Positions 47,801 to 59,800 of a stretch of 63,899 nucleotides of DNA are shown here, piece after piece. Positions within the stretch are counted from its first letter, which is position 1. Each line of letters begins with the position of its first letter. This stretch comes from a virus (Duplodnaviria > Heunggongvirae > Uroviricota > Caudoviricetes). Made by a program: the position numbers. The stretch lies in IMG/VR virus record IMGVR_UViG_643348545_000007. One strand, given 5' to 3'.

Positions 47801-50800
47801 CATGAAAAAGGTCGATGACCTTAACAGTGAGCAGCAGTACGAAAATATCGCAGGCACAACAAATCTTGGGTATCAGAAACAGTTTGGTGAAGCGCGAAGG
47901 GAGCTGGCGGGTAATCTTGCTCAGTCCGGCGTTGACCCATCCAGTGGTCGTTTTAATGCAGTAATGGATGCAAATCAAAGCGACCAGGTGATCGGGCAGA
48001 TTGACACGACCACACGGGGGCAGGTATCGCAGGCAGATAAATATATTGCCGGGCTACAGGATGTTGCGGCTCTCGGTTCCGGTCAGAAGGCAGATGCGTT
48101 ACAGAGTTTTAACTCCCTGGCTGACAGCAGTCTGGCAAAAGCCAAATCGGATGCACAGGCGGCGTTTACGAAACAACAGGGGCGAGCTTCTCTTGTTGGC
48201 GCTGGTCTGGGAGCTGTAGGTGCGTACGCGATGCATAAGGCTGGCGGTAACGGAGGTGGTGGCGGCGCTAAAACGCCAGGCACCGGCGCTAATGCTATTC
48301 AGCATCAGGCTCAGAACTGGAGACTGTAATTATGGAGTATGGCAAATACGAAACTCTCGCAAGGGCTGGTTATTCAGGCGCAGCCCGCCCACAGGGTGAC
48401 TGGCAGACATCCGCCGCGCTGACACGCCAGCAATACGACGACTGGCGAACCAGATATTTGCCCCGCGTGGCAAGGCTGGCTGACCTTGGCGAGAACAACA
48501 GCCTGATGAATGCACAGCTTGCCCGGGTAGGTGGCCTTGCCACTTCCAGTCTCCGTACAGCGCAGATGGCACAGGATAACCAGATGGCGAGATACGGGGT
48601 AAACCGTCCGGATAATCCCAACAGTAACACGCTGGGTTTACGTAATGCACTGGCAATTGCTGGCGCGAAAAATGGTATACGGGAAGCAGAGCAGGATCGC
48701 CAGATGAACATACTGACGGGGGCTTCTGCACCTGCAAGACAACAACTGAGTGTTGGCGGAAAACTGGTGTCAGCGTAAGGGGGCAATATGGGATACGGTT
48801 TACTGGATATTGCGAATCAGTCGCGGCGTGAGGCATTACAGGGAATAAGTGATGCCGACAGACGACGTGAAGAAATTGAGGCCGCGAACAAACAGATGGC
48901 GGCGCAACAGAAAGCGCAGAACAAACAGAATATCGGCACGGGAATTGGTACGGGTGCAGCTATGGGCGCTGCTGTTGGTGGTCTCCCCGGTGCCGCTATT
49001 GGTGCAGTCATCGGTGGTCTTGCTGGTTCGTTGTTTTAAGGAGTGGTGAATGAGCGGATTTGCACAGGGGTTACTTGCCGGATTCAGCACCGTTGACCAG
49101 GCAATGACCCGTCGTAAGGAACTTGGTTTGCGAGAAGCACAGCTTGCTCAACAACAGAAAAATAACGAGCGCGATTTTGAATTTGCACAGTCGCAGTTTG
49201 AACATAATAAAGACGTTGATCAGCGTGACTTTGATTACAAAGCCAAAGTTGATGACCGTGATTATGCGCTTAAAGAACGTGAATTTAACGCCAACCAGAA
49301 TTACCGGAATGCGTCGCTGGGTATGGAGCAGCAGCGACTCCGGATGCAGAAATACAACCAGCGACGGCTTGAGTATAACGATATGCTGGCGCGCGATCAG
49401 CCTGTGATGGCGGCGCTTGGAAAGGCTGTGGATGCTGGCGATCGGGATGCAGCAATGCGTCTTTACGGCCAGTTGTCAGAGGGTAATCCGCTGAGGCTGA
49501 TGGCGAATGATGGCTATGTAGCGAAAGCGGGTCAGGCCGTGAACAACCTGCAAAAAATCTTTGATGACAAGCCGGACAGGGCTATCGCTTCACTTAATAC
49601 GCCGGAGAATCTTGATGTCCTTTCCGGGGTGTTTGGCCCGGAACTGCAACAGCGTATTGGCATGCCCGATTCAACCGGGAAAAAGACGATAAAAGAGGCC
49701 AGGATTGGCAGTATAGTACCGGCACAGCAGGAAGGGTACGTACTTATTGGCCTTGATCTCACATACAGCGATGGCTCCACCGCGCATAAACCTGTAACAG
49801 AATACGGCAGTGCACATCCTGATGATCAAACCGTGCTGGCGGTGCCTGTTGATAAGGCTGTTGAGCTTGTCAGGGATCGCAGTAAATTCGCGGAAATTTC
49901 GAAAAATTTCGGCTATTTCACGCCGAAGCAGCAGGGACTTTCTGCGGATCAACTTCAGAAAGGAGCCAGCCAGGTAGCGATAAAGGTTGCACAGGACGGC
50001 GGTGATGCGCAGGGAGCAGTGACGCAATATTATGCTTCGATGGGACTGCCGCAGTATCAGCAGCAAATTCAGCAGCAAAAAATTCAACAAGGGATTACCA
50101 GTTGGGCGGGTGATGATCCGGATAAGCAGGCATTTGCCAGAGAAGTGGCCTCCCGTCAGCCAGAAATGCTGGAGCCTCAGAATCAGAAATTGCTGGAACA
50201 CGGGTATGCGAATTTTCTCCGTATTCAAAAGGCCAGGGGGGAACAGGCCAGGGATGATAGCGCGGCCTCTGCATCTGAGTTTATCCGTGGTCTGAAACAG
50301 AATTACGCGCAGTAATTCACCATTCCCGTTAATACTATTTCCTGATACCCGGTCATTGTGCCGGGTTTTTTTATGGAGTCTGTATGGCTTATTCCGATGA
50401 ACAGCGCCCTGAAGCGCAATTTGGCAACCAGAGCCGCAACAGCCTGAACATTCAGCAGCCGGGAGAGACTGACAGCTATGATGTGTTTTTCTCCGATCCC
50501 AATCGCTGGAAGGACAACAGCACGTCGTTCAGCCTGGGCGATGTATTGCCAACTATGGGGAAAGGTGTCGCCCAGTCCGTCCGGGGGACAGGGGAAATGG
50601 CCCGTGGACTCGGTGATGCGATGATTCAGAGCCCGGTAAAAACAGGGGCGCGTATTTTAAATGAGTTCAGCCGTATGGGGCTGCCGGGAGTCGCAACTGT
50701 TCAGGATATTTTTGTCGGTGGCAGCAAGGGGGCGGATGAGGTCATCGACACTCTGCCTGATGGAAAAAATGCGGTTACTGATACTGTCGGTAAAGGTCTG

Positions 50801-56800: not shown

Positions 56801-59800
56801 ATGCGGGCGATTGCAGAGCGTGTTGATCCGGAAACCGGCGAAACCCGTCGCGAAGTTGTTGAACGTCCGGTGCCTATGGCAATGATGGCGGATCGCTACT
56901 TCACCACCAAAAAGGACGGCAAAACTTACTACATCAAACTCCATGACCCGCGCCTGATGCGTGCGATGAAGAACATGGGGCCGGAAACCAGTAACGCCGT
57001 AATCCGTACGCTGGGGAAAGTTAACCGTTTCCTGGCAACGGTGAACACGTCGTATAACCCGGAATTTCTGGTCAGTAACTTCATCCGTGACGTGCAGACG
57101 GCGGTGATGAACCTGAAGGCTGAGCAGGGAAGGAGCGACGGTAAACTGAAAGGGCTGGATAACTTATCCGCCCTGGCTGTGGTGAAAGACAGCCGGTCTG
57201 CCATGTCTGCCGTATACGCCAGTCTGCGTGGTAAAACCCTCACGGGCAACGGTGCGCAGTGGCAGAAGGTGTGGAAAGAGTTTGTTGAGGATGGAGGTAA
57301 AACCGGCTGGTTTAACATGGGTGACCTTGAAGGCCAGCAGAAGGAAATGGATCGCCTTGTATCGCTGGCGAAGGGGGGATGGAAAGGCCAGAGTATCGGT
57401 GCATGGAATTCGTTCCTGAACCTTGTGGAGGATGCCAACGGTGCGGTTGAAAACGCACTGCGTCTTTCTGCCTATAAGCACGCCCGTGATGCCGGTTTGT
57501 CACGCCAGCAGGCGGCGTCTCTTGCCAAAAACATGACGGTGAACTTTAACCGTCGTGGTGAGCAGGGGGCGCTGATGAACTCGCTGTACATGTTCGCTAA
57601 CGCCAGCATTCAGGGGACGGCAAACCTTGTGAGAACCCTTGGGCACCTTAATGGTGACGGTCCGTTACTGGAGCGCCTTCGCTGGAAGAATCTCAATGTA
57701 CCGCAGAAAATCGCGCTTGCAGCTGTGGGAGCGGGTTATCTGCTTGGCTCGCTTAATCGGAGTGTGGCTGGGGAGGATGATGACGGGGTTAACTGGTATG
57801 ACAAGGTACCTGATCATGTGAAAGAGCGTAACCTCGTCATTATGAAATCGATGTTCGGGGGCAAGGCCGGTGAGTACTGGAGTATTCCTCTGCCTTACGG
57901 GTACAACGTTTTCTTCCTGCTCGGGCATACCGCTGAAGGTGTGGCGGCGGGTGACCTGACGGCGTCCCGTGCTGCCGGTAATGTTGTTGGTGGTGTGCTT
58001 GGTGCATTCAGCCCGATTGGCAGTGAGACGTCGGAAACCTTGTCCGGGGCATTGCTGAAAAACGCAGCGCCGACCATTCTGCGTCCGTTTGCGAATCTTG
58101 CCATGAACGAAAACTTCATGGGGGCGCAGATTTACCAGGAGAACATGCCGTTTGGTACACCAAAACCTGACAGCCAGCTGGGAAGACGTTCAACGCCAGA
58201 AGCGTACAAGGCGTTTGCATCCTGGCTGAATGCGTTCTCAGGTGGTAGCCAGTATCGTCCCGGCGCGGTGGATATCACACCGGAATCGCTGAAATTCTGG
58301 ATTGACTATATCTCCGGAGGGGCAGGGCGCTTCATTTCCAAAACCACGGATGCGGCGGTGAAATCGCTGAATGGTATTGATATACCGGAACAGCAGGTGC
58401 CCTTCCTGGGGAAAATTTCGGGTGAGGTGATGCCGTATGCAGACCAGCAGAAGATGTACGACCGGATGACAGAGGTTGCGCAGTATCACGCAGAGCTGAA
58501 GAGTCTGACCGGTGCAGAAAGAACGGCGTTCATTGACGAGAACAACGGAAAATTGTTGATGAACGGGCTTATGCAGGATACCCGGAAGAGACTGAAGGAT
58601 TTGCGCAAACAGCGTGATGCCATTTATGCCGACAGTTCTCTCAGTCTGGCGCAGCAGGCGGCGATGGTGAAATCGGTAGAGCGGGATATGAAGGTTGCCG
58701 TGGATCGCTTTAACCGCGAGTACAACAAAAAAGTGGGAGTGGATTAACAGAAATGGCCCCGTACGGAAGTGCGGGGCTGATTAAGAAATAAACACACATT
58801 AACCTGTAATAACCGGAGCTATTAACATATAGTCAGAAAGAGTATTTCATGTGAGACAGAGAGCCGATTTATGTTTAATGAAGAAAAAGTTGCGTAAATG
58901 GCAGCGTATTTGCTGAAAAAACATGGCGGATCTATGCGCTTCATTAAGCTGATGTATCTCTCTGACCGCAAAGCAATGGAGTTGTATGGTTTTCCCATTA
59001 GTGGTGATCATTATTTCTCTATGAACAAAGGACCCGTTTTATCGCAGACATATTCTTTGGTTAAGGATGGAAGTGAAAACGAGTACAGTCCGTGGGAATC
59101 ATGGATATCTGATGTAGCGGATCATAAGGTTGAAATGTGGCGTACATTTTCTTCTGTTGATGAGCTGGGGGAGTTATCGCCCGCAGAAATAGAGTCAATG
59201 GACATAATTTTTGGTCAATATGGAGGTTGGGATGCGTTCAGGCTTTGTGATGAAACTCACAGAATTTGCGGTGAGTGGCGCGATCCGCATGGTTCATCAA
59301 TTCCAATCAGCCTTAAGGATATATTTATTGCTCTTGGAAAGTTGCCAGAAGCAGCAACAGTAATGGCGAATAGCATTAATGCGCAAAATAATCTTGATAT
59401 ATTATTAGGTGATCTGAGGTAGTCGGGATGATGTTCAGCCCTTATTTGTATTTACCGGGGAGGGAAGATGTTTAATTCCGATTCCCCGGCTCCACAGGCC
59501 TAACCTAACTTTATGTAACAGTCCATGCAGGGCTGAAATCTGCCTGCTGAAATAACTCCGTTAGCCCGCTAATCTGCTTTAACCTCAGAACTTCATCCTG
59601 GTCCATCCCCAGTTCTGTTCCGATACGTTCATCAGTCCAGCCAAGACGTGAAAGATCTCTGACAATATCAGACATTGAGGTTATCTGGTGTTTCCCCCTG
59701 GCTCTGTTATGTCGGATAGTCGCGGCAATACGTGAGGTTTGTCCCTTTCGGTCTGGATTAATACAGGTTACTGGTAGCCAGCCTTTCAGGCGTTTTCCAG

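Follow-up and report, generated by a model that had tools for sequence, protein, structure and literature searches.

A giant cysteine-free protein of 933W-type short-tailed phages carries two conserved HExxH domains and is probably ejected with the DNA

What is the role of a gene that takes up about 13% of a phage type spreading Shiga toxin (Stx), and that is essential to it? We addressed this question for the 2787-amino-acid (aa) open reading frame (ORF) in the prophage of IMG/VR record IMGVR_UViG_643348545_000007 (Caudoviricetes), a stretch of 63,899 nucleotides (nt) hereafter called the window. The gene encodes a protein already known, the giant virion protein that is essential to short-tailed phages of the 933W/phi24B type, and our analysis is in this respect a rediscovery that reveals no new system. 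Added here are the placement of two conserved zincin-like domains, an architecture of conserved ends and a variable middle, and a cysteine-free signature that the protein shares with known ejected proteins. Two annotations in the literature are corrected: the metallopeptidase is not MuF-C, and there is no AAA+ ATPase. The explanation that we favor, and regard as probable, is that this internal virion protein is essential, leaves the particle together with the DNA and carries protease and RNase-like cargo.

A preliminary description of this DNA, made from the sequence alone, had pointed to an uninterrupted 8.4-kb ORF behind a terminator and a strong start context, covering about 13% of the prophage and containing two HExxH motifs; each of these observations was reproduced. 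The ORF starts with ATG, contains no stop, and with 8364 nt accounts for 13.1% of the window. The elements concerned are the following.

50384..58747, + strand: giant ORF encoding 2787 aa with zero cysteine; orthologue of Sp5 ORF80/ECs1242, Stx2-86 gp35 and phi24B gp47
50347..50383, + strand: terminator-like hairpin with T-run (50347-50366 plus tail), from a hairpin scan
within 50347..50383, + strand: Shine-Dalgarno GGAG, 5 nt ahead of the ATG of the giant ORF, from the sequence
54215-54229, + strand: HEWFH, motif 1 of the giant ORF, aa 1278-1282
55016-55045, + strand: HEIIHHAMEH, motif 2 of the giant ORF, aa 1545-1554

Late transcription under Q antitermination is expected, in Stx-type phages, to pass through terminator-like sites such as 50347-50366. 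The two motifs lie exactly where the preliminary description had put them, and they are far from a chance occurrence: the protein contains only 35 His residues, 0.03 HExxH matches are expected by chance, and two matches arose in 11 of 20,000 residue shuffles.

The amino-acid sequence is 93% identical to ECs_1242 of the Sakai prophage Sp5, with most of the divergence confined to a Pro/Glu-rich linker at aa 830-900 or so, and it matches PHROG 616 over its full length. At the DNA level, full-length identity of 93-98% was found to the gene in 186 phage records, nearly all of them Stx-converting short-tailed Sepvirinae; the gene is also present in 426 of 5426 complete E. coli genomes, under the PGAP name 'LPD5/LPD38 domain-containing protein'. 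Sp5 ORF80, phi24B gp47, Stx2-86 gp35 and the giant ORF of the 933W group (PHROG 616) are the same gene as the 2787-aa ORF, differing in length (2793 or 2811 aa in the Sp5 and phi24B orthologues). It closes the late/virion operon in a Sepvirinae-type prophage, and synteny with Sp5 is identical, the 421-aa product of the upstream gene being 83% identical to the essential Sp5 ORF79/ECs_1241. Unlike in the Sp5 and phi24B cases, the prophage lacks stx: no ORF for an A or B subunit was found in the interval that separates the Q-like gene (20328-20954) from the NanS-p-like esterase gene (22374-24377), and the prophage is a stx-negative relative of the Stx phages.

Essentiality and virion presence are taken from experiments on two orthologues, Sp5 ORF80 and phi24B gp47. 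Upon deletion of Sp5 ORF80 (ECs1242, 2793 aa), DNA was packaged and heads were normal (Mondal et al. 2016, PMC5155283). The mutant produced zero plaques and zero lysogens and bound no anti-tail-fibre antibody, all of which was complemented in trans, and the gene was essential on E. coli K-12 even for phage produced in K-12 (PMC5155283). A deletion of ORF79, the 421-aa neighbour, had the same phenotype (PMC5155283). In purified phi24B virions gp47 was identified with 93.6% coverage, 422 peptides and the second-highest spectral count (2026 preprint 10.64898/2026.04.10.717836), corresponding to an estimate of about 11-35 copies per virion (~19), rough because it derives from spectral counts and good to within a factor of 1-3. 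The protein is missing from the cryo-electron microscopy maps of full and emptied particles alike, emptied ones making up about 40%, and in gel slices it was recovered chiefly above the 80-kDa portal, tailing to lower sizes (10.64898/2026.04.10.717836); the supplementary peptide table pools all gel slices, and site-specific processing of gp47 is not readable from it. The phi24B proteins gp48, gp50 and gp51 are likewise virion proteins invisible in the maps, and the authors describe 'internal tail contents' that, in full particles only, restrict how the tail is oriented (10.64898/2026.04.10.717836). The same preprint states the size of gp47 two ways, as 2811 aa and as '>3,000 aa' (10.64898/2026.04.10.717836). 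The title of 'virion protein' given in the preliminary description, an assumption at the outset, was thus borne out solely via the orthologue gp47 and its published proteomics; the text of another proteomics paper, on enterohemorrhagic E. coli phages (PMC12502783), makes no mention of the giant protein.

The composition of the protein links it to proteins known to leave the phage head. No cysteine occurs among its 2787 residues, compared with 1.43% across the window's remaining ORFs (P about 3e-18), and the depletion extends to the genes directly upstream.

47673..50315, + strand: four genes (218, 148, 83 and 421 aa), all without cysteine; orthologues of phi24B gp51, gp50, gp49 and gp48

Together the five consecutive late genes at 47673-58747 (218, 148, 83, 421 and 2787 aa) encode 3657 residues with 0 Cys, and the genes flanking this block (47178-47579 and 58898-59422) have 3 and 2 Cys. 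The four genes and the giant ORF probably form an internal or ejection-protein cassette. Among 65 giant relatives only 8 Cys were counted in 189,969 residues, 59 of the proteins having none; stand-alone LPD5-zincin proteins have a normal Cys content of 0.75%. Cysteine is equally missing from the ejected core proteins of T7, gp15 (0/747) and gp16 (0/1318), from the ejected virion RNA polymerase (vRNAP) gp50 of N4 (0/3500), and from the N4 virion proteins gp51 (0/644) and gp52 (0/150), compared with the cytoplasmic T7 RNA polymerase (12/883), T7 DNA polymerase (10/704) and N4 DNA polymerase (12/859). The Cys-free composition is an empirical signature and does not formally define ejection proteins, and by analogy with these proteins it would fit unfolded passage through the tail and through the oxidizing periplasm.

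The preliminary description could assign no domain beyond the motifs, a statement now superseded by four Pfam domains (LPD5, LPD1, MuF_C and LPD38, all far above the Pfam gathering scores) and one NCBIfam domain. The same four Pfam domains bear out its proposal that the protein belongs to the polyvalent class. From the N- to the C-terminus the following parts were distinguished.

50384..51703, + strand: N-terminal conserved domain, aa 1 to ~440, no Pfam model, ending in a Gly-zipper-like hydrophobic segment (aa 402-425)
51704..53503, + strand: linker rich in Pro, Glu and Gln (composition per 100 aa), aa ~441-1040, no Pfam match, probably disordered
53516..53965, + strand: LPD5 domain, aa 1045-1194 (Pfam PF18799, E = 2.3e-45)
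53909..54685, + strand: domain 1, a zincin-like metallopeptidase domain of CLCA_X type, aa ~1176-1434; called 'phage-type MPTase' by Iyer et al.
54446-54685, + strand: Pfam LPD1, aa 1355-1434, within the CLCA_X span and holding the invariant E1369 and E1376
54818..55363, + strand: second HExxH domain, aa ~1479-1660, with H1516, H1545-E1546-x-x-H1549 and an acidic helix at ~E1601
55613..55882, + strand: MuF_C domain, aa 1744-1833 (Pfam PF18819, E = 4.8e-18, 65.6 bits against a cut-off of 27.6)
56000..58744, + strand: conserved C-terminal module, aa ~1873-2787; in relatives its place is always the extreme C-terminus
57791-58408, + strand: Pfam LPD38, aa 2470-2675, inside the C-terminal module

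Motif 1 belongs to a well-conserved domain. In a 60-sequence alignment H1257, H1278, E1279, H1282, D1285, E1369 and E1376 are invariant, and the motif is kept in 75 of 75 homologues below 60% identity; for this motif the zincin-like reading of the preliminary description holds. The NCBIfam model CLCA_X (NF041907) matches aa 1176-1431 over the full model with E = 1.7e-44, and its score, 152 bits, falls short of the 260 bits that the curated cut-off demands of stand-alone members. By these profile comparisons domain 1 is homologous to CLCA_X, yet the giant protein lies outside the stand-alone subfamily. CLCA_X has been predicted to be a zincin family, related to the CLCA protease domain that cleaves itself, and has an HExxH...D signature (Lenart et al. 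2013, PMC3650047), and is enriched in phages and plasmids (PMC3650047); the signature is the same here, as one domain of a giant protein and not as a stand-alone one. For the 'phage-type MPTase', a His closing strand 2 and an Asp three positions past HExxH have been described (Iyer et al. 2017, PMC5512222), and the conserved residues of domain 1 agree exactly with this pattern. The AlphaFold model of aa 1040-1745 is confident over domain 1 and has the zincin order of elements, with an N-terminal helix, a three-stranded sheet, the HExxH helix and the Glu helix that make up a zincin core, and its nearest structural neighbours are the protein-cleaving lethal factor, Pro-Pro endopeptidases and MtfA. 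When Pfam was run on sub-segments at E <= 10, no zincin model covered either HExxH. Since LPD1 lies inside the CLCA_X span and bears the invariant Glu residues, it corresponds to the C-terminal Glu-bearing helix region of domain 1; this Pfam entry, listed as a domain of unknown function, appears to be part of the zincin domain and not a separate one. Domain 1 is accordingly described here as a zincin-like domain with an intact H-E-H-D/E site and predicted catalysis.

The second HExxH domain is conserved to a lesser degree and is remote from known families. In aligned homologues the motif residues are kept as H in 42/49, E in 42/49 and H in 44/52 cases, the upstream His is kept in 38 of 48, and the three motif residues are invariant in a 15-sequence alignment; motif 2 usually follows motif 1 by ~232 aa. 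The AlphaFold2 model (predicted local distance difference test of about 80-90) places strands before the HExxH helix in a topology compatible with a zincin. The domain 2 profile gave weak Pfam matches (DUF6782 at E = 0.002, covering 3 of 15 members; Peptidase_M76 at 0.11; SprT-like at 0.17) and no match against PDB sequences. Domain 2 is probably zincin-like, as judged from its conserved residues and predicted model, and is covered by no curated model. The zincin-like reading of the preliminary description thus stood for motif 2 as regards conserved context, and was weak as regards a match to known peptidase families. That description had also named two outcomes that would speak against it, HExxH matches in non-conserved context and absence of the protein from virions; the contexts are conserved for both motifs, and the phi24B orthologue is abundant in virions. 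A recent tandem duplication of the two HExxH domains was considered and found no support, as hhalign aligned just the 9-residue motif helix with 2% probability.

Downstream of the zincin-like domains, MuF_C represents a PBECR (barnase/EndoU/colicin-like) predicted RNase fold and no metallopeptidase (Iyer et al., PMC5512222). In the window's protein, the single sequence from which these residues were read, the region carries a K-H pair (GVKHVV) and a later Ser (KVASVYG). For the C-terminal module the predicted model is confident and shows one large, mostly alpha-helical fold, for which no counterpart was found in the PDB. A separate candidate, the AAA+ ATPase (COG1483) suggested by Mondal et al. 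2016, was rejected, no Walker A motif [AG]xxxxGK[ST] and no AAA Pfam match at E <= 1 being present.

Relatives of the giant protein were collected through its N-terminal domain by an exhaustive HMMER search with aa 1-450; a word-indexed search with the N-terminal 450 aa returned close enterobacterial relatives only. The ~430-aa domain was found in 102 cluster representatives (P0284-P0384), where the matches start near residue 1 of proteins of ~2000-5500 aa. Architectures were counted on the 65 N-terminal-domain relatives of at least 1500 aa. The C-terminal module closes 29 of these 65 proteins, LPD5 occurs in 18, zincin 1 follows it directly in 18 of 18, the domain 2 profile matches 8, and 40 have no HExxH whatsoever; the middles of three scanned relatives contained a SNF2-like helicase, a methyltransferase or an ART domain. 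Because HExxH is missing from 40 of the 65 relatives and the middles differ, we consider the ends to be the constant part and the zincins to be cargo. The C-terminal module of ~900 aa, with 34-58% identity among relatives, is elsewhere fused to ART-PolyVal, methyltransferase, LPD3 or InPase. The unit LPD5-zincin 1-LPD1-zincin 2 also occurs free-standing, in proteins of ~870 aa. One such case (874 aa; L004 10001-12625, L005) belongs to a Selenomonadaceae conjugative element; its neighbours are TraG and TrbL, reverse transcriptases of group II introns and a relaxase of the MobA/MobL type. Since the zincin cargo exists as a stand-alone protein, it is unlikely to serve only for cutting a polyprotein.

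Two observations on these conserved ends stand apart. A Logan-derived relative, P0140 (1594 aa, 76% identical over the C-terminal module), is listed as carrying the P22-portal Pfam family PF16510 besides MuF_C and LPD38, and this combination could be a real fusion or an artefact of assembly or annotation. The 83-aa protein encoded at 48788-49039, inside the Cys-free cassette, has a YMGG-type glycine zipper (Pfam E = 1.6e-6) and is annotated 'bacteriocin' in Stx2-86; its phi24B counterpart was present in virions at a low level and was set aside as a contaminant. The giant protein has an N-terminal domain ending in a similar Gly-zipper (aa 402-425), although its Gly-zipper matches are weak and the hydrophobic segment was recognized from the hydropathy profile.

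Among described systems, the protein resembles the polyvalent proteins (Iyer, Burroughs, Anand, de Souza and Aravind 2017, PMC5512222), which are giant, multidomain, and encoded beside virion genes in phages or beside T4SS genes in conjugative elements; it has in common with them the 'phage-type MPTase' and LPD5, LPD1, MuF_C and LPD38, four families that this study defined. That class was defined by prediction, and its roles in delivery and anti-defence are hypotheses (PMC5512222); in departure from the general polyvalent model, the Sp5 orthologue is essential and tail assembly depends on it. Like T7 gp14, gp15 and gp16 and N4 gp50, which are packaged in the head, essential and very large (gp15, gp16 and gp50 being the ones shown to be Cys-free), the giant protein is very large and Cys-free and, judged from its orthologues, essential and probably packaged in the head. 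Similarity of sequence or fold to the T7 and N4 ejection proteins was sought and not found; in contrast to those proteins it has no RNA polymerase or transglycosylase domain, and its ejection is deduced. A zincin domain has been reported in the N4 vRNAP (Iyer et al., PMC5512222). The 'DarB-like' giants of Bcep22-like and Ralstonia GP4-like phages have the C-terminal module of ~800-900 aa in common with the window's protein at 27% identity, the link to JC1 gp69 being drawn through BcepIL02, and only this module matches the 'DarB-like' PHROG 10089. These giants are encoded at the end of the morphogenesis module and were found in virions by mass spectrometry, in phages with a portal, capsid and tail akin to their 933W/phi24B counterparts; JC1 gp69 itself (4515 aa, from a Bcep22-like phage) is a major virion protein encoded at the same genome place. 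Their middle carries helicase- or methylase-type cargo, as opposed to LPD5, zincins and MuF_C here.

Under the favored explanation, the giant protein would reside in the capsid and partly in the lumen of the portal and tail, and the latter location would explain why the tail fails to assemble without it. On infection it would leave unfolded via the short tail of the ~60-kb phage, ahead of or along with the DNA. The conserved ends would serve packaging, completion of the tail and passage of the DNA across the envelope, and the middle, with two zincin-like peptidases, LPD5 and the RNase-like MuF_C, would be cargo that is set free or becomes active in the cell. The zincin-like domains may either split the polyprotein into working pieces or cleave host proteins. 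Conserved ends, an enzyme-bearing variable middle and a Cys-free likeness to ejected proteins turn a 'hypothetical protein' into a source of testable hypotheses, concerning which part is needed for infection, self-processing as opposed to host targets, and the capacity of the middle for foreign cargo. We also advance, more tentatively and with some doubt, a joint proposal of a modular protein-injection chassis. In it the essential ends (~430 aa N-terminal and ~900 aa C-terminal) would act, in podoviruses of the 933W/GP4/Bcep22 type, as a device for packaging and ejection, some 20 copies in each virion would pass through the tail as unfolded chains together with smaller Cys-free partners, the space between the ends would be an exchangeable cargo bay, and domain 2 would represent a new zincin family. 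The bay would hold two zincin proteases and an RNase-like domain in the present phage and a helicase, methylase or ART elsewhere, and the enzymes would reach the cell before any phage gene is expressed.

Several points weigh against ejection of enzymatic cargo. Virion presence is what is documented, and for the giant protein and all its orthologues entry into the cell is deduced by analogy. The activity of domain 1 is a prediction, as is that of domain 2, which has no significant match to any known peptidase family, and a phmmer search of the whole giant protein against PDB sequences found no relevant relative. The Cys depletion is correlative, and the N4 capsid protein and the T7 scaffold protein are also Cys-free. 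The copy numbers of gp47 are approximate. To our knowledge, classical ejection-protein mutants of P22 and T7 do not have the tail-assembly phenotype of the Sp5 ORF80 deletion. The Sp5 authors read this deletion as a tail-assembly defect (PMC5155283).

That interpretation leads to a different explanation, namely that the protein is a tail-assembly factor or a structural part of the tail or neck that is kept in the particle, as a lumen plug or a tape-measure-like scaffold, with enzyme-like domains that are vestigial or act in assembly. The full heads and missing tail-fibre labelling of the mutant agree with it, as do the position of the gene at the end of the tail gene block and the 'internal tail contents' of phi24B, with their effect on the orientation of the tail in full particles alone. 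We nevertheless consider it unlikely: some 19 copies of a 307-kDa protein are too much for a short tail, the protein is missing from reconstructions of intact and emptied particles, the active-site residues are strictly kept over wide divergence, the Cys-free signature is shared with known ejected proteins, and variation of the cargo between relatives is unexpected for a purely structural part. The phi24B preprint proposed instead an ejection protein whose metallopeptidase digests peptidoglycan for a trans-periplasmic conduit. Presence of gp47 in virions, its invisibility in the map and the existence of real zincin-like domains are in keeping with this proposal, but the preprint places the peptidase in MuF-C, an RNase-like PBECR fold, and the structural neighbours of zincin 1 cleave proteins. 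Cell-wall peptidases normally belong to the M15 and M23 (LAS) families and are not HExxH zincins. Because 40 of the 65 relatives with the N-terminal domain have no HExxH, a zincin is no general need for envelope penetration, and the same zincin unit stands free in a conjugative element; digestion of peptidoglycan is therefore, in our estimate, very unlikely.

The preliminary description had favored a multi-effector anti-defence protein injected with the DNA. In its strong form, a weapon like DarB of P1 whose zincins release effectors or act as such, this idea draws on membership in the polyvalent class (Pfam; PMC5512222), on DarB-type cargo (SNF2-like helicase, methyltransferase, ART) in relatives with the same ends, on the annotation of relatives' phage copies as 'DarB-like antirestriction' and on the virion location of phi24B gp47. 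P1 DarB has methyltransferase and SNF2/DExH helicase domains, and neither these nor any other known anti-restriction domain was found here with Pfam and NCBIfam; PADLOC gave no match, and the literature contains no experiment that ties the giant protein to any defence system. Since Sp5 ORF80 is essential, on K-12 even for K-12-grown phage, and tail-fibre labelling is lost upon its deletion, with tail assembly affected, a dispensable anti-restriction effector is disfavored as the main role, and anti-defence does not explain the essential phenotype. As a primary function anti-defence thus seems improbable to us, and it may be a secondary role of the middle region. Ejection of an essential internal protein with protease and RNase-like cargo remains the reading that we prefer.

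Some further features of the prophage were recorded. Its closest chromosomal match adjoins ynfF/ynfE in E. coli DETEC-S792, and no tRNA gene was found anywhere in the window. The giant gene is followed directly downstream by a gene resembling the SocA/Panacea antitoxin (58898-59422, + strand). Next to it, two genes overlap on the opposite strand, one IbrB-like and of the ParB family (59511-60155), the other IbrA-like and of the PAPS-reductase/DUF3440 type (60140-61366). At the position of this accessory module (58898-61366), Sp5 and Stx2-86 have a different one.

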